The notes under the pieces were generated by a model. It did no database searches. It was not told where the DNA came from and was given only the letters and a program-made list of their open reading frames with translations. Below are positions 9,852-21,848 of a stretch of 28,316 bases of DNA, in pieces. Position numbers and translations under genes: made by a program. Position 1 is the stretch's first letter, and every line of letters starts with the position of its first letter. The stretch comes from Thermoplasmata archaeon. Lineage in GTDB: Archaea; Thermoplasmatota; Thermoplasmata; Lutacidiplasmatales; UBA184. The stretch covers positions 1 through 28,316 of the forward strand of contig JAGWLG010000040.1 in NCBI GenBank assembly GCA_028864975.1, read 5' to 3'.

Positions 9852-10229
9852 TTGGCGACCCATCCCTACCAACCATCGGTCCGGGCCAAGCGGGTCTACG
9901 AAACCCCCTCGCCGGGGGACGGTAAGCGCGTCCTGATCGACCGCCTATGGCCGCGGGGCCTGACCAGAGAGCGGGCACGGGTGGATGAGTGGAGGCGAGA
10001 CCTGGCCCCGAGCGACGAGCTCCGGAAGTGGTTCGCCCACGACCCGAGGAAGTTCCCCCGGTTCCGAGCGCGATATCGGATGGAACTGCTTCGTCATCAG
10101 GAAGCTCTGGCCATGCTCATCATCGAAGCCGAGCAGCGCCCCGTGACCCTGCTCTATGCTGCACGGGACCCTGAACACTGCAACGCGACCGTGCTGAAAG
10201 AGCTCCTCGAGGAGAACCTGGGCGGATGA
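9852..10229 (+). CDS. DUF488/YeaO-family protein
   Basis: KRVYE..DGKRVLIDRLWPRG, APSDELRKWFAHDP, TLLYAARD..HCNA. Confidence 0.92.
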   Translation: MATHPYQPSVRAKRVYETPSPGDGKRVLIDRLWPRGLTRERARVDEWRRDLAPSDELRKWFAHDPRKFPRFRARYRMELLRHQEALAMLIIEAEQRPVTLLYAARDPEHCNATVLKELLEENLGG

Positions 10230-10747
10230 GCGTGAGGTCCGAGACCCCGGCCGATCCCCCACTGCCCAGCCCTTCCCCCGCCGGGCAGCTCGGGTCCTTC
10301 CTAGAGGAGGACCACGACCGGCTCGACGCTCTTTGGGTCCGCGCCACGCTGGCGTGGCCCAGGGACCAGGTCGAGGCACGGCAGCTCTTCGAGGAGTTCC
10401 GGATCGGCCTCCTACGGCACATCCGCGTCGAGGAGGAGGTCCTCTTCCCGTTCTACAACGCCCGAAGCTCCCCTTCCTCCCGTCACCTGACGGACCTGCT
10501 CCATGCGGAGCATCGGGAGATCATGGCCGCTCTGGCCCGACTGATGGCCGTGGTGAACGGCGGCCCTCAGGACCTCGAGGAGGCGGAGACCGTTCTGCGG
10601 AACGTACTTTGGGCCCACAACGCTCGTGAGGAGGGGCTGCTCTATCCCTGGTTCGATCCTACGGACGATCCGGACCTGCTTCGACTTGGCGCCGACGTGA
10701 GAGCCCGCCTTTTCGTGAGCCCGGCCGGCGCGACCCCACCGCGGTGA
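10226..10747 (+). CDS. Hemerythrin (HHE) domain protein
   Basis: EDH..L, RHIRVEEEVLFP, EHREI, AHNAREEGLLYP. ATGA overlap with DUF488. Confidence 0.9.
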   Translation: MSVRSETPADPPLPSPSPAGQLGSFLEEDHDRLDALWVRATLAWPRDQVEARQLFEEFRIGLLRHIRVEEEVLFPFYNARSSPSSRHLTDLLHAEHREIMAALARLMAVVNGGPQDLEEAETVLRNVLWAHNAREEGLLYPWFDPTDDPDLLRLGADVRARLFVSPAGATPPR

Positions 10748-12368: not shown

Positions 12369-13067
12369 TCACGCATATCCGAACTGGCGCTTGGCGAAGT
12401 CGCTCATCTTCTGCGGGCCCCAAGGGGGTTCCCAGACGATCTCGACGTCGGCTTCCCGAACACCAGGAACGGCGCGGGCTGCGGCGAGCACCTGGTCGCG
12501 GAGCATCTCCCCCACGGGGCACCCCGGGCTCGTCATGGTCATCTTCACGTGAACTTTTCCGGCGGCGGGCCAATCGATCCCGTAGATGAGCCCGAGGTCC
12601 CAGATGTTCATGGGGATCTCGGGGTCGAAGATCTGCTGGAGAGACCTCTTCAGAAGACCATCAGCCTCCGCGGTAGGGGTCTCGCGCTTCTCGAGCCCCG
12701 ATGCGGCCTCGGTCCGGGCCTCCTTGAGATCCCCTGTCGGGGCCGCCAACGCCCCCGGGGGCGTCGAAGGAAGGTTCGGGCCCTCGAGGTGGAAGCCCGC
12801 GTAGCCCTCTTCCACCACGTAGTCGATAGTGGACTCCGCGAGGTACTTCCGACTGGTGTCGTCAACCACGAGCGGGACGCCCTCGACCTCGAGGACCTTC
12901 TCGTGGGACCTCGGCCGCTCCACGGCCATGTTGGGACGGGGTTGCGCCCCTGGCAGGACGAACAGCCGGACGGCGAACCCCCGCTCGTGGGCCCGCAGCA
13001 CCCCGAGCAGCGCGTCCTTGGCACGCGGGGTCACCGTGATGCGGAACGGGCTGCGGTCGTTCATCAT
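12369..13067 (-). CDS. HesB/IscA-like domain fused to DUF59 (SufT/MIP18) Fe-S assembly domain
   Basis: N-terminal ITVTPRA..VPLVVD..YLAESTIDY..GF..N; C-terminal DPEIPMNIWDLGLIY, MTSPGCP, VWEPPW. Confidence 0.88.
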   Translation of the reverse strand: MMNDRSPFRITVTPRAKDALLGVLRAHERGFAVRLFVLPGAQPRPNMAVERPRSHEKVLEVEGVPLVVDDTSRKYLAESTIDYVVEEGYAGFHLEGPNLPSTPPGALAAPTGDLKEARTEAASGLEKRETPTAEADGLLKRSLQQIFDPEIPMNIWDLGLIYGIDWPAAGKVHVKMTMTSPGCPVGEMLRDQVLAAARAVPGVREADVEIVWEPPWGPQKMSDFAKRQFGYA

Positions 13068-13248
13068 GGTCCGCCGGACGAGGCCTGCCGAGCCCCTGAA
13101 GCCTGCGTCGAAAGGCTTCGACGGGTGAGAGCCCGGTCACTCAGGACGACCCGATAGGACTCCACAGGGGCACTGTCAGTCGCTTCCATCGATCCGTTCT
13201 GTCGCATCCACGCGCGCGCACGACGCCCCGGAGCAACCCCCTTGGTCC

Positions 13249-13794
13249 TTACGTCGGTGTCGCGGGCCTCTTCCGTTGACTTGGGCGCGCGGACATCCCC
13301 CCTGGCAGGAGAAAAGGGAGCAGCACGCGCACCAGGTTCGCGCCGAAGATGAAGAAGGAGGCCACCGCCACCAGAAGGAATACTGTGCCGAGGGGTGAAG
13401 CGGGCGCGATGAGAGCGAGCGCGAAGAACCCGAGGATGCCCACGTTGCTCATCAGGAGGTGAAGACGAGGCAGGAGACGGGGAGCCAGGGGGACCCCGAC
13501 GTGGTTCGGGACCACGATCGTGCTCACCCCGCTGATGGTGAGTCCGACCCACCCGAAGAGGGCCACCAGGTCGCGGACCTCCATGAGCCGGTCAGGAACG
13601 ATGGCGGTCCTATCGAGGAGCTGGACCGCGCCGACCACGAGCATCAACCCGGTGAGCAGGAGGAGGTACCCCGCCGCGCACAGGATCATGGCGAGAGCTT
13701 CCGGGATGGGAGGTCGGCGCACGCGCGGAGCCCCCGCTGCGGAGACCATAGGAAGGATGGATGGGGCCGGGGGGGAGAGGAGCCCTCCGCTCAC
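13249..13794 (-). CDS. Small 4-TM membrane protein (NnrS/COX1-like half unit)
   Basis: Four hydrophobic helices, LFGWVGLTISG..VPN motif, GTGA overlap with the upstream hemerythrin gene. Confidence 0.7.
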   Translation of the reverse strand: MSGGLLSPPAPSILPMVSAAGAPRVRRPPIPEALAMILCAAGYLLLLTGLMLVVGAVQLLDRTAIVPDRLMEVRDLVALFGWVGLTISGVSTIVVPNHVGVPLAPRLLPRLHLLMSNVGILGFFALALIAPASPLGTVFLLVAVASFFIFGANLVRVLLPFLLPGGMSARPSQRKRPATPT

Positions 13795-14687
13795 GCGCGC
13801 CCCCGTCCCTCTTGCGAGGGTGCGGCCAACATCGAGGCCGGGAAGGCGGGGTCGCGGGGGGAGTGGGGGAGGTGTCCCCCCTCGTCGGCCCAGGCGGCGA
13901 GGGCGAGGGGGGCTGGGTCCTCGCTCCCCGACCCTCTAGCGTGCTCGGGACATAGGAAGTCGACCCGGACACGCACGACCCCGTCCGACCCCAACCGGGT
14001 GGTTTGGGGGGATACGCCCCAACCCCCTTCGGGAGCCATGAGGCCTATCCGTCCCTCGTGGAGCGGCACCACGCGCCCCTCCGCGGTGGCCACGCATCCG
14101 TCCCTCGCGCAGTGGACGCTCAGCGGAGCCCCGAGGGAACCCGCAGGGGAAGCTAGGAGCCGCTGGATATGGCTCTCGAGGTCCTCGACGTTCGCCCGGT
14201 CGGTGGTGAACTTCTCCGCCAGCCGCTTCGAAGCCCCCTCAGGGAGTGCGGACACGAGGCAAGAGAGGGGGTAGTCCCCCTCGTGGGTCCGGACCTCGAA
14301 GGTACGGTTCCCAAGGGACTCGAGGCTGTGCGCGAGGGCATCGCGCGAACTTGCGACACCCCTCTCGTAACGGGCCAGCGCCTTCTTCGCGTTCTCGAGA
14401 ACCTCGGAGACCTCTCCGTGGTCCTTCGGCAGTTGGTCCAAGTGCACGGTGCAGGTCGACATGGCCACCGCCCGAGCCTCGGGTCCGAGGGTCCCGTCCA
14501 TGCGTTGAACATGGATGTGGCGGTACTGCTCGAGTAGCCGCAGTCCTTCCGCGATCTCCCCGGGGGGAAGGTCCTTCCCGCCCTTCAGGATCTGGGCCTC
14601 TTCCAGGATCCGTTCCAGCAGTCCTTGGGTGACCTCGTTCTCGTGTTGCAGTTCTTCCAGCGGGTCGGTGAGCTCGGTGTTCGTCAT
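13791..14687 (-). CDS. Degenerate hemerythrin-like protein with a Cys/His C-terminal domain
   Basis: PLEELQHEN, YRHIH, KDH, THEGD spacing typical of HHE bundles; C-terminal CARDGC...CPEH. Confidence 0.7.
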   Translation of the reverse strand: MTNTELTDPLEELQHENEVTQGLLERILEEAQILKGGKDLPPGEIAEGLRLLEQYRHIHVQRMDGTLGPEARAVAMSTCTVHLDQLPKDHGEVSEVLENAKKALARYERGVASSRDALAHSLESLGNRTFEVRTHEGDYPLSCLVSALPEGASKRLAEKFTTDRANVEDLESHIQRLLASPAGSLGAPLSVHCARDGCVATAEGRVVPLHEGRIGLMAPEGGWGVSPQTTRLGSDGVVRVRVDFLCPEHARGSGSEDPAPLALAAWADEGGHLPHSPRDPAFPASMLAAPSQEGRGRA

Positions 14688-15043: not shown

Positions 15044-15424
15044 CTAGTGTCGATGTGGACGTGGGCGGTGGATGAGCTCCACCTTGAGCCCCTCAGGTCC
15101 TCGCACGAACCAAGAGTAGGAGCCCTCCCTCCTCTTCGTACCGATGAGCGGGAGGCCCTTTCGCCTCAGCAAGGGAAGGACCCCCTGAGCCCTTGGCACC
15201 CGGAGGGCGAGGTGATCGACCCCATCGTTGGCCCGTCCCCGCGACGAGCGGCGGAGGCCCAGGACCTGGTCTCCCATGATGAGGAAGACGTGGTCCTCGC
15301 CCTCTCCGATCACTTCCATCCCGAGGCCGTCCTCGAAGAACCTCCGGGCGGCCGCGAGGTTCCGGACCTTCACGTCCACATGGTCGAAACCTGCGGGCCG
15401 CAGTCCGCCGCGTGCCTGCGCCAC
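15044..15424 (-). CDS. VOC (glyoxalase-like) metalloprotein
   Basis: FDHVDVKV, FFEDGLGM, VDHLALRV, GPEGLKVELI. Confidence 0.9.
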   Translation of the reverse strand: MAQARGGLRPAGFDHVDVKVRNLAAARRFFEDGLGMEVIGEGEDHVFLIMGDQVLGLRRSSRGRANDGVDHLALRVPRAQGVLPLLRRKGLPLIGTKRREGSYSWFVRGPEGLKVELIHRPRPHRH

Positions 15425-15461
15425 GGCTCGAGCTCCGGGGCGCGACAGGCCGACGTCCCGC

Positions 15462-16610
15462 CTAGGAGGGGCTCACGACGTGGACCGAGTGGATCCCCGG
15501 GAACTGGAAGGGGACCTGGCTCCAGCTCTTGCCCGCGTCGGGGCTGAGCACGAGCTGTCCCGTGGTGGTCCCGACATAGATACCCGCCGGGTCCAGCGCG
15601 TCGGTGTTCATCCCCTCGCGGTGAACCCCGTAGTTCCCGGGGATCTTCGTGGCGGTCATGAGCGCGCGCCAGCTCCGCTTGGTGTCGTTCCACTCGAAGA
15701 CCTGGAGCCCACCCTGGACCGTGACGCGGGAGCGCCCCTCGAGAGGGACGAAGAAGGCCCTGCCGGGGAGCGCGGGGGCCGAGGCCACCGCGAACCCGAA
15801 ATCGTCCTCGAACTGCTTGAACGTCGGGATGGACTTCCCGATCCGCTCCCAGTTGGCCATCCGGTCATGGCTGACGTACATCCCTCCATGGTCCTGTCGG
15901 TAGGCGGTGTCCGGGTTCGCGGGGTCGAGGACCACGTGGTGGACGCACTGCCCGACCTCGGGGTACTTGTGGGGCAGGAAGGGGGTCTCGACGCCCTTGT
16001 TCGCGGCCGTCCAGCTCTTGCCCCCATTCTCGCTGCGGAAGGTCCCGGCCGCCGACATCCCGACGTACATCCGGCGGCGGTCCTTGGGGTCGATGAGGAT
16101 CGTGTGCATGCAAGGTCCCCCCGCGCCCGGCCCCCAGTCCGTCTTGGTCGAGTGGTTGTTGATGGAGTCGACAGCGACCCAGCTCTTTCCAAGATCATCG
16201 CTGCGGAAGAGCATGTGCGGGTCGACCCCGAGGAAGAGGGTCTCCGGCTCGTCGGCGTGCCCCGGCTCGAAGTGCCACAGGTTCGTGATGGCGTGCTTCG
16301 GGCGTTGGACCTCTCCCCCGGACGTGTCGAACTCGGGCTTGCGCTCCTGGGTCGCCGGCATGAGCGGCGTGGTGATCTCCTCCCAGGTCTTCCCCCAATT
16401 GGTGGAACGCTTGACGATGGGTCCGAACATCCAGTCGTTGATGGCCGCGTAGAGATGGCCGGGATGCCGCGGGTCGGAGGTCACATGGAAGACCTCACGA
16501 CCGGGGCTCTCGACCTGGCCCACCCTCCAGGACTTTCGCTTCGAGTCGCTCTCGACGACATAGGCGCCCTTTCGTGTGCCCAAGAGCACACGGACCTTCT
16601 TCTCCGCCAT
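15462..16610 (-). CDS. BNR/Asp-box beta-propeller protein
   Basis: STNWGKTW, SDDLGKSW, SENGGKSW, SPDAGKSW; GPCMH and GQCVH motifs; no signal peptide. Confidence 0.88.
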   Translation of the reverse strand: MAEKKVRVLLGTRKGAYVVESDSKRKSWRVGQVESPGREVFHVTSDPRHPGHLYAAINDWMFGPIVKRSTNWGKTWEEITTPLMPATQERKPEFDTSGGEVQRPKHAITNLWHFEPGHADEPETLFLGVDPHMLFRSDDLGKSWVAVDSINNHSTKTDWGPGAGGPCMHTILIDPKDRRRMYVGMSAAGTFRSENGGKSWTAANKGVETPFLPHKYPEVGQCVHHVVLDPANPDTAYRQDHGGMYVSHDRMANWERIGKSIPTFKQFEDDFGFAVASAPALPGRAFFVPLEGRSRVTVQGGLQVFEWNDTKRSWRALMTATKIPGNYGVHREGMNTDALDPAGIYVGTTTGQLVLSPDAGKSWSQVPFQFPGIHSVHVVSPS

Positions 16611-16644
16611 CTTGTCCACGTTCCTTCGGACCGAACCCGTGAGG

Positions 16645-16914
16645 TTATCCTCCGGCTATCGAATGGAGGATATCTACTGTGTGGACGCCGGAAAGCGGAA
16701 CGGCCGTCCCGTCGCCACGGCCCGCGTCCTCCCCGTCGACGAAGACCCGAACATATCGCCGAAGGCCACCGGTCTCATCCCGCAGTTTGAGGCGCAGCCG
16801 AGGGTAGCGCCGCTCGAGCTCGTCCAGGAGCTCCTTCACATTGCTCGCGTCCAGTCGCTCAACGTCGCGCACGCCCAGTTCCCGCATCCAGGCGTCGAGA
16901 CGGACCTCGAGCAT
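16645..16914 (-). CDS. Ubiquitin-like MoaD/ThiS/SAMP protein 1
   Basis: 89 aa from ATG 16914; beta-grasp pattern RRYVRVFVDGED; C-terminal SIAGG. Confidence 0.9.
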   Translation of the reverse strand: MLEVRLDAWMRELGVRDVERLDASNVKELLDELERRYPRLRLKLRDETGGLRRYVRVFVDGEDAGRGDGTAVPLSGVHTVDILHSIAGG

Positions 16915-17868: not shown

Positions 17869-19251
17869 ATGACGAGCGGAACCACGCCCCAGACGAGCCC
17901 CCCGGACGAACGAACCCCTGCGATCCCCTCTTCGGACCGGCCCGCGCGGCGGTCGAGCCTCGCGCAGGGGCTGGCCTGTGGAGCGTGCGGCGCCGCCTTC
18001 CCGCTCGACGGGCGGACCGCCTGCGAGCGCTGCTTCGGTCCCCTGCAGGTCGTCTACGACCTGGCCCAGCTCCGGGGGTCGCGCCCAGGTCCAGTCCTGC
18101 GCGGGCGTGAGGTCGGCCTCTGGCGCTTCCGAGAGCTCCTCCCTCCCGTATCGCCCTCCTGCGCCGCTCGCCTCTCCGTCGGGAACACCCCGCTGCGGCA
18201 CGCCAAGGAACTGGGCGCGCTCTGGGGACTCGAGGACCTCTGGCTGAAGGATGACACGGTGCTTCCTTCGGGTTCCTTCAAGGACCGTCCCGCTTCGGTC
18301 GCGGTCGCCCGGGCCGCGGACCTCGGGTTCTCTCGCGTCGGCTGCGCCTCCACGGGGAACCTCGCGGCCGCGACCGCCCGGGCCGCCGCCCGGCTGGGAC
18401 TCCCCTGCCAGGTGTTCGTCCCGAAGGACCTCCCCGCCTCCAAGCTCCTCCCGGTCCTCGCCTTCGACGGCCAGATCGTGGAGGTCGACGGGACCTACGA
18501 CGACGCGAACCGGGTCGCGAACCTCCTGGGAGAGCGGGGAGAGGTGGGGCTCGTCAACATCGGGCTGCGTCCGTACTACACGGAGGGGTCGAAGACCCTC
18601 GTCCTCGAGACGCTCGAAGCCCTGGGGTGGGAGAGTCCCGACTGGGTCGGGGTCCCGCTGGGGTCGGGAGCCCTCCTCGCCGCGACGGAGCGTGGGGTCG
18701 ACCAGGTCCGAGACCTGGGATGGCTCGACGGGTCGGGGGGGGACGCTCCCGCCTTGTTCGGTTCCCAGCCGGTCGGATGCGCTCCCATCGCGGACGCCTT
18801 CGCCCGAGGGGACGACCAGATCGTCCCCGTTCGTCGCCCCGACACGATCGCGGAGAGCCTCGCGATCGGGGACCCGGCCTCGGGGTACGAAGCGCTGAGC
18901 GCGATCCGTCGTTCGGGGGGGTTCGCGGACGCCCCGACCTCAGAAGAGGTCCGCTCGGCGATCCTGGAGACCGCCCGCCGCGAGGGCCTCTGGGTCGAGC
19001 CGGCGGGAGGGACGGTCCTCGCCTCGATCAAGCGGAAGCTCGAGCAGGGGGTCATCCACCGCACCGACCGTGTGGTCGCGTTCCTGACCGGCGCGGGATG
19101 GAAGACGCCTCAAGCCCTGGGGGCACCCAGCAGCTGGGCGCGACCGGTGCAGCACCTCCCGGCCGACGCCAGGAACACCGAGGCGCCCCGTCCCTCGCCC
19201 CGTCCGCCCGCGGCTCGCACGGCAACCCCGACGGAGGTGCGCGCATGGTGA
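17869..19251 (+). CDS. thrC: Threonine synthase family PLP enzyme with N-terminal Zn ribbon
   Basis: CGAC..CERC; GSFKDR (PLP Lys); CASTGNLA; RPYYTEGSKT; EPAGG. Confidence 0.9.
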   Translation: MTSGTTPQTSPPDERTPAIPSSDRPARRSSLAQGLACGACGAAFPLDGRTACERCFGPLQVVYDLAQLRGSRPGPVLRGREVGLWRFRELLPPVSPSCAARLSVGNTPLRHAKELGALWGLEDLWLKDDTVLPSGSFKDRPASVAVARAADLGFSRVGCASTGNLAAATARAAARLGLPCQVFVPKDLPASKLLPVLAFDGQIVEVDGTYDDANRVANLLGERGEVGLVNIGLRPYYTEGSKTLVLETLEALGWESPDWVGVPLGSGALLAATERGVDQVRDLGWLDGSGGDAPALFGSQPVGCAPIADAFARGDDQIVPVRRPDTIAESLAIGDPASGYEALSAIRRSGGFADAPTSEEVRSAILETARREGLWVEPAGGTVLASIKRKLEQGVIHRTDRVVAFLTGAGWKTPQALGAPSSWARPVQHLPADARNTEAPRPSPRPPAARTATPTEVRAW

Positions 19252-19523
19252 GCGTCTGCTTCGCCTCCGCTCTGCGGAGCGTCGCCCGGGGGCAGGCGGA
19301 GGTCGATCTCCCCGGCTTCGAGGGAGACCTCCGTGGGCTTCTGCAGGCGCTCTCCCATCAGGTGGGTCCTGCGCTGGGGGAGAGGCTCCTCGAGCAAGGT
19401 CGCATCCGCCGCTTCGTCAACGTGTACGTCGACGGCCTGGACGTGAGGTTCAGCGGCGGCCTCGAGACGCCTGTCCCGAAGGGGGCGACCGTGGACTTCA
19501 TCCCGGCCGTCGCGGGAGGGTGA
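19245..19523 (+). CDS. Ubiquitin-like MoaD/ThiS/SAMP protein 2
   Basis: GGAGG SD and ATG 19245 overlapping the thrC stop; RRFVNVYVDG; C-terminal PAVAGG. Confidence 0.93.
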   Translation: MVSVCFASALRSVARGQAEVDLPGFEGDLRGLLQALSHQVGPALGERLLEQGRIRRFVNVYVDGLDVRFSGGLETPVPKGATVDFIPAVAGG

Positions 19524-19524
19524 G

Positions 19525-20784
19525 ATGGGGCAGGAGGGGACACCGACCTCCCCGGGGGGGCCTCGCCCTGGACCTCGGGGGCCCTCGCCGCGCAGGGTCC
19601 TGCTCCTCGGTTTCGGGCACGTCGGTCGCGCGGTCGCCGAGCGGCTCCTTGAGGAGGGGCACGGAGACCCCGACTTCCCCTGGAGGGTGGTCGGCATCGT
19701 AGATTCCCGGGGTGCGCTGATCGATGAGGCGGGCGTCGACCTCCGTGCCGCCCTCTCCTCGAAGACCACCGCCGGTCGCTTGGAGGGTCCCACCTGGCGG
19801 GATTGGGACGCGCTCCAGGCGCTGGACGAACTTCGCCCCGAGGTCGTGGTCGAGGTCTCCGTCGCCGACCCCGTGAGGGGAGAGCCCGGGACCACCCACG
19901 TCCTCGCCGCCCTCGACGCCGGTGCCGACGTCGTCGCGTCCAACAAGGGCCCGTTCGCCCTCCGTCACCGAGAGGTCTTGGCGGCGGTCGCCCGGACGGG
20001 CCGTCGGGTCCGCTACGGCACCACGGTCGGGGGGATCGTACCGATCCTCGAGACCCTCGTGGAGCGTCTGCCGACCGCCGAGGTGACCCAGGTGCGGGCG
20101 GTGCTCAACGGCACGACGCAGTTCGTGCTCGACCGCATCGCCCAGGGGGCCTCCTTCGATGACGCGGTAGGCGAGGCCCGTCGAACGGGGCTCGCCGAGC
20201 CGGACCCCTCCTGGGACCTGGACGGCCACGATGCGGCGCTCAAGGCCGCGATCCTCCACAACGCGCTTTTCACCCCCCCGATCACCGCCGCCGAGGTTCC
20301 TCGGGACCCGCTCGGCCCGGACCTGATCCCCCGGCTCCAGAAGCTTCGCTCCGAAGGGAAGGGGGTGGCCTTCGTGACGACGGTGAGGGCGGGGTCGGCC
20401 GAGGTCCGATGCGAAGAGGTCCGTGCGGGGAGCCCGTGGTCCGAAGGAGGACCGGCTAACGTGTTCGAGATCTCCACGCGGAGGGTCGGGACCCTACTCC
20501 TGCAAGGCCGTGGAGCGGGGCCGCAAGCCACGGCGACGGGGGTTCTCGCGGACCTGACCTCCCTCGAAGCCCTCTCCGGGCACGACGGACCTAGGTTGCG
20601 CGGGTCGGCTTGGATCGAGCGCTCCCAGTGGCCTCCACGCCCCCCGGTGGAGCGCGACACCACCCCGGTGACCCACGACTTCGTCCATCCTGCCGTGCGG
20701 GCGAGTTGGAGTGTGCCCCGCCCCCCTCCGACGCTGCCTTCGGCTGCCGCGGCAGAAGCGTTCGAGGAGGTGCGGCCGTGGTGA
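19525..20784 (+). CDS. hom: Homoserine dehydrogenase (no ACT domain)
   Basis: LLGFGHVG, VVASNKGP, VGGIVP, LNGTT, AEPDPSWDLDGHDAALK, GRGAG..TA. Confidence 0.93.
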   Translation: MGQEGTPTSPGGPRPGPRGPSPRRVLLLGFGHVGRAVAERLLEEGHGDPDFPWRVVGIVDSRGALIDEAGVDLRAALSSKTTAGRLEGPTWRDWDALQALDELRPEVVVEVSVADPVRGEPGTTHVLAALDAGADVVASNKGPFALRHREVLAAVARTGRRVRYGTTVGGIVPILETLVERLPTAEVTQVRAVLNGTTQFVLDRIAQGASFDDAVGEARRTGLAEPDPSWDLDGHDAALKAAILHNALFTPPITAAEVPRDPLGPDLIPRLQKLRSEGKGVAFVTTVRAGSAEVRCEEVRAGSPWSEGGPANVFEISTRRVGTLLLQGRGAGPQATATGVLADLTSLEALSGHDGPRLRGSAWIERSQWPPRPPVERDTTPVTHDFVHPAVRASWSVPRPPPTLPSAAAAEAFEEVRPW

Positions 20785-21848
20785 CCCCGGCGCTGGCAGG
20801 GACGGCCCCGCTCGGCCCGAGGTTCGAGGAGCCCGCAGCCCCCAACCCCGCGATCCGCGCATGCTCGAGGAAGGCCAAGGCCCCGCCGCTTCCCGACCTC
20901 GTCCCTCCCGGCGAGCACCCCACCTCGGTGCGCGTGCGGGCCCCTCTCAGCATCGCGAACGTCGGACCTGGCTTCGACCATTTCGGCCTCTGCCTCGAGG
21001 GCCCTGCGGACGTGCTCGAGCTTCGGACCTCCCGTGCCTCCGGGCTCGAGGTCTACGGCGACGCTGTCGTCCCGCGGGACCTGCGTCGCAACGTAGCGAC
21101 CGTCGCGGCCCAGGAGGTCTACCGTCAGAGCGGGCTCAGGTTCCGGGTGGAGGCGCGGCTCTTCAAGGGCTACCATGGCGGAAGCGGTATCGGCTCCAGC
21201 GGGGCTTCGGCGGTCGCCGGCGCCCTCGCGGCCGCCGCGCTGCTCGGACTGGACCCTCGGGAGGGACCGACCCTGGACCTGGTCGTTCACGCGGCGTTGT
21301 GCGGCGAGCGGGTGGCCTCGGGCAGTGCCCACCTCGACAACGTGGCGGCGAGCCTCTTCGGAGGTTTCGTCCTCGTGGAGGGGTTGGACCCTCCCATCGT
21401 CCATCGGCTGCCGACCCCCGACGGAGCCCGGATCATCGTGGCGCTACCCACCCTACGGGTCTCCACATCCAAGGCCCGGGCCCTCTTGCCCGCGACCGTC
21501 CCGCACCAGGACGCGGTCGCGAACGTGGCGAGGGCGAGCGCGCTCGTCCATGGATTGCTCACCGGCGACCTGGAGCAGGTGGGACGCAATCTTTCTGACC
21601 GGCTGGCGGAGCCCTACCGGGAGCCCCTGGTCCCGGGGCTCGCCTCCGCGAAGCAGGCCGCCCTCGAGGCGGGTGCCTGGGGCGTCGCCCTGGCGGGGAG
21701 CGGGCCCGCTGTCTTCGCCCTCGGTCCCCCGGACCGGACGGAGGCCGTGGGGGCAGCCCTTCGAGAAGGGTTTGGACGCGCCGGGGTCCCTTGCCACACC
21801 TTCACGAGCCAGGTGGGGGAGGGGGCTTCTCTGGTGGGTTGGAGCTAG
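20778..21848 (+). CDS. thrB: Homoserine kinase (GHMP family)
   Basis: SIANVGPGFD, GIGSSGAS, HLDNVAASLFGG, LAGSGP. GGAGG 7 nt before GTG 20778. Confidence 0.93.
   Translation: MVTPALAGTAPLGPRFEEPAAPNPAIRACSRKAKAPPLPDLVPPGEHPTSVRVRAPLSIANVGPGFDHFGLCLEGPADVLELRTSRASGLEVYGDAVVPRDLRRNVATVAAQEVYRQSGLRFRVEARLFKGYHGGSGIGSSGASAVAGALAAAALLGLDPREGPTLDLVVHAALCGERVASGSAHLDNVAASLFGGFVLVEGLDPPIVHRLPTPDGARIIVALPTLRVSTSKARALLPATVPHQDAVANVARASALVHGLLTGDLEQVGRNLSDRLAEPYREPLVPGLASAKQAALEAGAWGVALAGSGPAVFALGPPDRTEAVGAALREGFGRAGVPCHTFTSQVGEGASLVGWS

Follow-up and report, generated by a model that had tools for sequence, protein, structure and literature searches.

Here we describe an uncharacterised two-gene module, spanning soil archaea and several bacterial phyla, in which a gene for a small ubiquitin-like protein (Ubl) adjoins a gene for a β-propeller. 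The pair was found in a 28,316-nucleotide stretch of DNA from a Thermoplasmata archaeon (JAGWLG010000040.1; the whole stretch is hereafter called the window), which is contig C35 of a 3.6-Mb assembly (GCA_028864975.1; 68% GC, 89.6% complete). Three genes stand in a row on the minus strand between positions 15044 and 16914, encoding an 89-aa ThiS/MoaD/CysO-like β-grasp protein with a Gly-Gly end (16645–16914), a seven-bladed Asp-box propeller of the 3B7F family (15462–16619) and a VOC/glyoxalase-fold protein (15044–15424). The gap between Ubl and propeller is 25 nt when the propeller is read from its GTG start, or 34 nt from an alternative ATG at 16610, and 37 nt separate the propeller from the VOC gene. 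A first-pass annotation of the window, made from the sequence alone, had reported three co-oriented genes with gaps of 34 and 37 nt, and its coordinates and strands are borne out, as are its gaps if the ATG at 16610 is taken as the start. We consider it very probable that the Ubl and the propeller act together through the C terminus of the Ubl. More tentatively, and with somewhat less than an even chance of being right, patterns of conservation suggest that sulfur is transferred when the thiocarboxylated Ubl tail docks in a centre of His and Arg residues in the propeller.

The adjacency of Ubl and propeller is far beyond chance, because it recurs across phyla; given that related genomes are not independent, counts are reported without a statistical test. 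On all three Thermoplasmata contigs compared, a ThiS-family gene lies 11–33 nt upstream of the propeller, and all other surroundings differ. Besides the source genome, 18 of 301 sampled Thermoplasmatota species genomes carry a propeller orthologue, and a Ubl with the Gly-Gly motif (GG) adjoins it in 17 of the 17 loci complete enough to judge. Representatives at 34–45% identity from Gaiellaceae, another actinomycetote, Chloroflexota, Nitrososphaerales and another archaeon all have an adjacent Ubl (5/5). The propeller is present in 94 of 301 sampled Actinomycetota genomes (about 30% of species; the tally includes the unpublished genomes G540, G421, G569, G389, G475 and G527). Pairing was observed in 45 of 48 genomes of this phylum, made up of 30/30 best loci (27/27 without L054, L062 and L069 from the unpublished G540, G421 and G569) and 15 of 18 further genomes, for which 20 loci had been fetched and two repeated genomes already counted. 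A single-protein locus scan gave three relevant loci, from an Obscuribacterales metagenome-assembled genome, the cultured alphaproteobacterium Aliihoeflea aestuarii and a Nocardioidaceae contig, of which the first two carry the pair. The Ubl lies upstream of the propeller in some loci and downstream in others, with the pairing kept.

The two genes are also joined in nature. In 2 of the 15 pair-positive further Actinomycetota genomes, Ubl and propeller are fused in frame (L077, 6740–8065; L079, 6737–8056), and called fusion proteins occur in metagenomic protein libraries (P0148, P0314, P0315 and P0237). These fusions fall into at least two sequence groups, one of P0148, P0314 and P0315 and the other of P0237, L077 and L079. 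They retain GG and place just 4–12 linker residues ahead of the first propeller strand; in an AlphaFold2 (AF2) model of P0148 (predicted template-modelling score (pTM) 0.81), the GG linker has a predicted local distance difference test score (pLDDT) below 50. Co-occurrence of the neighbourhood across prokaryotes, which the first-pass annotation had named as a check, thus upholds the link between Ubl and propeller through near-obligate adjacency and natural fusions, and does not extend to the VOC gene.

The Ubl scores 33 bits against PF02597 (ThiS; cut-off 22.5) and terminates in HSIAGG, a GG end as in the first reading, with the GG codons at 16648–16653 and the stop codon at 16645–16647. It stays below the cut-offs of the SAMP1 model NF041918 (41 bits; cut-off 60) and the archaeal MoaD model TIGR01687 (moaD_arch; 36.4 bits; cut-off 49.5). 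Propeller-linked Ubls are 32–39% identical to the CysO-type domain of the source genome and are therefore CysO-like. Gly-Gly is kept in 20 of 20 aligned propeller-linked Ubls and in every further Ubl found, fused ones included. Five of the 17 Thermoplasmatota partner Ubls have 1–7 residues beyond GG (L020, L021, L024, L026 and L029), and the ends seen in these five loci and in many Actinomycetota are GGC, GGS, GGST, GGVS, GGSGNGRQG, GGG, GGGTG, GGATH, GGAPAPVR and GGRDD. Such short extensions imply that the C terminus is processed and used.

Four ThiS-family genes are found in the source genome: the Ubl gene described here, a second Ubl gene that follows a thrC-like gene in the window, a moaD beside moaE (contig C104) and a domain fused to an E1 enzyme (C75). 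We considered whether the window Ubl could be the MoaD subunit of molybdopterin synthase and rejected this, since the sole MoaE match of the genome lies on C104 beside another ThiS-family gene; with a separate canonical MoaD–MoaE present, the Ubl is not the molybdopterin carrier. The sole ThiF match is on C75, and JAB matches number three (C75, C119 and C2). The matches in the genome are thus all on other contigs, in agreement with the first-pass remark that the window holds no E1, JAMM or MoaE gene. The C75 E1 is a single 495-aa ThiS–ThiF–rhodanese fusion with an internal SIAGG-TPG junction, and it sits beside Prok-JAB and PALP (CysM-like) genes, the three together occupying L008, 97–2976. 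By analogy, this arrangement would match the logic of CysO–MoeZ–Mec+–CysM, so that a thiocarboxylate would be the expected fate of activated Ubls. Strong matches to the rhodanese-E1 occur in 15 of 18 pair-positive Thermoplasmatota genomes, but also in many pair-negative ones, and this co-occurrence, confounded by kinship, is weakly suggestive.

The propeller is 385 aa long from its GTG start (382 aa from the ATG at 16610) and was modelled by AF2 with a pLDDT of 92 and a pTM of 0.92. It has Asp-box/BNR and Sortilin-Vps10 Pfam matches and, lacking a hydrophobic N terminus or signal peptide, is predicted to be cytoplasmic. Its close relatives number more than 1,100, mostly from Thermoplasmata. 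The sole close solved relative is 3B7F (Reut_B4987/YP_299179.1 of Ralstonia eutropha JMP134), which matches the family profile with E = 8e-131 and the window protein with E = 2.5e-56 over residues 9–383 (template-modelling score 0.85). This structural-genomics entry is titled 'putative glycosyl hydrolase with BNR repeats', and the one paper found to discuss it lists its function as 'not known' (PMC2716378). The bacterial protein is about 32% identical to the window propeller and has Lys and Asp in place of Cys170 and Cys225, but it shares the single seven-bladed Asp-box fold and residues His172, His227, Gln242, His244 and Arg334. GH74 enzymes, Ycf48, DAIP, sortilin and sialidases match the propeller at the level of blades only. 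Assignment to Ycf48/HCF136 was rejected on scores of 16.3 bits against PF14870 (cut-off 27) and 16.8 against NF010237 (cut-off 326). Propellers of the 3B7F family joined to a Ser/Thr protein kinase domain are found in P0137 (704 aa) and in ESM Atlas clusters from Acidobacteriota.

We regard it as very improbable that the propeller acts as a conventional glycoside hydrolase (a sialidase or GH74-like enzyme) whose neighbouring Ubl gene is unrelated. The database names 'exo-alpha-sialidase' and 'glycosyl hydrolase' and partial matches to GH74 and GH33 chains speak for it, but these matches span Asp-box blades only, on a single seven-bladed domain. We looked for a canonical glycosidase site, and the hallmarks of both families are missing, which agrees with the first-pass view that the sialidase label is baseless. 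GH33 sialidases share the Asp-box repeats and the propeller fold but have six blades, an Arg triad, a Tyr/Glu nucleophile and the RIP motif, none of which the window protein has; it has seven blades, neither a conserved Glu nor a RIP motif, and a BNR_2 score (25.3) that falls short of the cut-off (31.4), and sialidase matches in the Protein Data Bank (PDB) are partial (E = 5e-7 or weaker). GH74 xyloglucanases, which likewise share repeats and fold, consist of two tandem seven-bladed propellers whose cleft holds a pair of Asp; neither feature is seen in this single 385-aa domain, whose GH74 matches cover about 140–260 residues with E = 1e-21 or weaker. The only conserved acid pairs are made of Asp-box Asp, the signal peptide of a secreted hydrolase is absent, and archaea and bacteria alike keep the Ubl next to the propeller.

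What is conserved in the propeller is a polar set comprising Lys17, His172, Cys225, His227, Gln242, His244, Arg298, Arg334 and Tyr348. The first-pass annotation had drawn attention to two paired Cys-His motifs, which are indeed located in the propeller: GPCMH at residues 168–172 (16104–16118, minus strand) and GQCVH at residues 223–227 (15939–15953). As the core of a site, however, the Cys residues do not hold up. Cys170 is found in just 28 of 48 and 57 of 79 sequences, the latter set being genomic, and Cys225, although mostly conserved (40/48 and 76/79), is Asp in 3B7F and in a Chloroflexota member that still has an adjoining Ubl. His172, His227, Gln242, His244 and Arg334 are instead essentially invariant, each occurring in 78–79 of the 79 genomic sequences: His172 in 78/79 (47/48 in the smaller set), His227 in 79/79, Gln242 and His244, both in the QDH motif of residues 242–244 in the B–C turn of blade 4 (15888–15896), in 79/79 each, and Arg334 (codon 15618–15620), a candidate anchor for a (thio)carboxylate, in 79/79 and 48/48. 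The exchange of Cys225 for Asp against a background of fixed His residues suggests a metal ligand rather than a nucleophile. A His-based, probably metal, site thus seems likelier than a Cys persulfide or thioester acceptor.

In a DSSP blade map of the AF2 model, read with the Asp-boxes as marks of the C–D hairpins, the conserved polar residues map to D–A or B–C loops, that is, to the starts of inner strands or to B–C turns. From propeller topology, they would lie around the central channel on the top face, and the pattern fits a metal site there. In blades 1, 2 and 7 of the 120 closest Thermoplasmata proteins, the matching inner-strand position is also occupied by His (His45, His116 and His377), and His156 and both Cys are likewise fixed among these proteins. 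This subfamily thus has what appears, from the alignment, to be a ring of His residues.

Putting these observations together, we propose the following course of events. The Ubl would be adenylated and thiocarboxylated in trans by the C75 ThiS–ThiF–rhodanese E1, as its domain content suggests. The flexible C-terminal tail of the Ubl would then enter the centre of the propeller from the top face, where Arg334, with Lys17 and Arg298, may hold the (thio)carboxylate. The His-rich, probably metal-binding site (His172, His227, His244, Gln242 and Cys/Asp225) would take the sulfur or relay it to an acceptor, and it may be enlarged in the Thermoplasmata subfamily by His45, His116, His156 and His377. A structure prediction of the complex of propeller and Ubl gave a median score of 0.14 (mark 0.32), which we count neither for nor against binding. 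The first-pass annotation had seen in the propeller the enzyme that accepts the Ubl, with its Cys residues as persulfide, thioester or metal site. The functional link stands, on adjacency and fusions, and a Ubl-dependent system is the best reading; a Cys persulfide or thioester acceptor becomes less likely, as Cys170 and Cys225 are not invariant.

Several points weigh against a sulfur-acceptor role, which is proposed from genome context and sequence. We know of no thiocarboxylate-using enzyme with a propeller fold, and, with nothing else conserved near the pair, genome context does not point to an acceptor substrate. The clustering of the conserved residues is deduced from propeller topology. 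By the same topology, the strand that opens the propeller in the fusions begins at the bottom face, and access of the tail to the top face would then require either cleavage or action in trans. Three Actinomycetota genomes of Streptomyces size (6.9–9.2 Mb; L072–L074) have the propeller with its His/Arg set intact but no Ubl within 7 kb, and the Nocardioidaceae contig likewise has a propeller without one; across the four loci, the flanks free of a Ubl span 3–7 kb. The kinase-fused relatives exemplified by P0137 hint at binding or sensing rather than catalysis. A narrower version of the sulfur-transfer proposal is clearly unlikely, although it would be the most far-reaching: the propeller would represent a new class of metalloenzymes that depend on a thiocarboxylate, in which sulfur from the Ubl-COSH tail passes to a metal or metal-sulfide centre bound at the central His site. 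In the Thermoplasmata subfamily, five or six of the seven blades would each contribute an equivalently placed His to this site, which with its two Cys would resemble in outline the CuZ site of nitrous-oxide reductase, likewise lined by His. If true, it would add a previously unknown client of the prokaryotic Ubl sulfur relay, common to archaea and many bacterial phyla.

Other explanations of the pair have to be weighed against sulfur transfer. In our judgement, it is on the whole unlikely that the propeller serves as a metal-dependent hydrolase with the Ubl C terminus as its substrate, one that would trim residues or fusions beyond GG, free an adduct, or hydrolyse the thiocarboxylate to pass sulfide on. 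Adduct release has a precedent in Mec+ acting on CysO-Cys, and sulfide hand-over in TfuA with ThiS-COSH. Many partner Ubls have 1–15 residues after GG or are fused in frame, and these would need a GG-specific cut; the set of three His with Cys or Asp is similar to the metal sites of hydrolases, among them the His-His-Asp zinc site of JAMM; and, judging from PDB titles, C-terminal peptide tails are ligands of related Asp-box propellers (a D1 peptide in Ycf48, a peptide in sortilin). The window Ubl and most others, however, keep the propeller although they stop precisely at GG, where trimming would be superfluous. The genome moreover has JAMM genes elsewhere, and a pure processing enzyme would leave the Ubl without a client in the module. 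It is quite improbable that the Ubl is a protein tag of the SAMP/Urm1 type, with the propeller as its main target, adaptor or ligase and possibly a thiocarboxylate reaction with oxidised Cys225, as in Urm1/Ahp1. The best family models of the Ubl are SAMP1 and archaeal MoaD, though below cut-offs, Cys225 is found in most sequences, and Urm1-COSH conjugation is reportedly established as coupled to cysteine persulfidation. Set against this are the Asp in place of Cys225 in 3B7F and in the Ubl-adjoined Chloroflexota member, the absence of an E2- or E3-like gene linked to the pair, and the commonness of the pair in bacteria, where ThiS-type conjugation is rare.

We regard as decidedly improbable a role without C-terminal chemistry, in which the Ubl would stay non-activated and, as a subunit, support or regulate a propeller that serves as ligand-binding sensor or scaffold. 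The kinase–propeller fusions would suit such a role, as would the propellers that lack a nearby Ubl in some genomes and the fusions through GG, which block the Ubl C terminus unless cleaved; but the invariance of GG in all Ubls, fused ones included, is hard to explain without C-terminal activation. The three-gene system of the first-pass annotation, with the VOC protein handling a reactive substrate or product of the Ubl–propeller reaction, fares poorly and has hardly any likelihood left. The 37-nt gap and shared strand in the window favour it, and the VOC gene is probably co-transcribed with the pair here. By tblastn, however, a VOC homologue stands beside the pair in 0 of about 85 other loci, five genomes of the same taxonomic family included, and the glyoxalase gene of another Thermoplasmata contig with the pair is unrelated and on the opposite strand. 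The VOC gene is a lineage-specific local neighbour outside the conserved unit.

Among known systems, the sulfur-transfer proposal has its closest parallels in MoaD–MoaE (including the fused MoaX of M. tuberculosis), ThiS–ThiG and CysO–CysM with MoeZ and Mec+, in which a GG carrier likewise lies beside, or is fused to, one dedicated partner while the E1 is encoded elsewhere. They differ in that the partner here is a β-propeller and that substrate pathway genes are not linked; MoaD–MoaE and a CysM–JAMM–CysO/E1 cluster are, in addition, already present elsewhere in the genome. In ThiS–TfuA, thiocarboxylate hydrolysis feeds YcaO thioamidation, and a small dedicated partner binds ThiS-COSH and frees its sulfur; TfuA has an unrelated fold, and YcaO is not linked in the window locus. 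SAMP1/SAMP2–UbaA and Urm1–Uba4 also combine a GG-ended β-grasp protein with a single E1 and serve as sulfur carriers and tags. The window Ubl differs in scoring below the SAMP1 and moaD_arch cut-offs and the E1 of its genome in being MoeZ-type with a rhodanese, and we know of no propeller partner for SAMPs or Urm1. Ycf48 (D1 peptide) and the sortilin Vps10 domain (neurotensin or progranulin peptide) belong to the same propeller superfamily (Foldseek E = 1e-9 to 5e-9) and grip free C-terminal tails, sortilin through an Arg; they differ from the window propeller in being 11–15% identical, extracellular or lumenal and non-catalytic, and in lacking the His cluster in the comparison.

In the literature, we found no paper linking a ThiS/MoaD protein to a BNR propeller; the words BNR, propeller and sialidase are absent from the two main comparative-genomic surveys of prokaryotic and archaeal Ubls, and a feature search of the ESM Atlas returned no match above 0.81. 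The pair probably marks an undescribed partner for sulfur-carrier proteins. To our knowledge, a defined sulfur-insertion reaction or tagging pathway has come to light behind each ThiS/MoaD-type carrier characterised so far, with thiamin, molybdopterin, cysteine, methionine, thio-tRNA and thioamides as examples. In the present module, the partner of the carrier has a completely different fold, and the two occur together in Thermoplasmatota, Nitrososphaerota, Actinomycetota, Chloroflexota, Melainabacteria and Proteobacteria. Identifying the reaction would open a new branch of prokaryotic Ubl and sulfur-relay biology and correct thousands of annotations as 'sialidase', 'glycosyl hydrolase' or 'PSII assembly factor-like'. 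With the solved 3B7F structure and cultured carriers of the module, the question is directly testable.

The remaining genes around the pair vary. The 126-aa VOC protein scores 29.9 bits against PF00903 (cut-off 20.6) and has His/His/Glu candidates at the usual positions (H15, H71 and E116), but it does not reach a subfamily (Fos model, 34 bits against 250). Downstream of the VOC gene, at 12369–14687 and 10226–10747, are a HesB/DUF59 fusion, two hemerythrin-domain proteins and a small membrane protein, unrelated to the pair. On the plus strand, a separate and divergently oriented operon (17869–21848) encodes a ThrC-like pyridoxal-phosphate (PLP) enzyme, then the second GG-ending, CysO-like Ubl (19254–19523), a homoserine dehydrogenase and a GHMP kinase. 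By tblastn across all loci, neither this ThrC operon nor the HTH-CBS regulator or hemerythrin gene of the window recurs beside the pair, and no E1 or JAMM gene was found near any fetched pair; the clustered neighbours of 20 Actinomycetota loci likewise contain no third conserved gene. In a single Thermoplasmata lineage, the pair abuts moaA, moeA, a MoCF_biosynth gene (moaB) and moaC on the opposite strand (L005/L006, 7141–11648), an arrangement not seen elsewhere. The sole recurrence in a tblastn search with CysM is a gene for a CysM-like PLP enzyme in one Actinomycetota genome (L088, 5735–6589), which lies about 130 nt from a propeller-linked Ubl.

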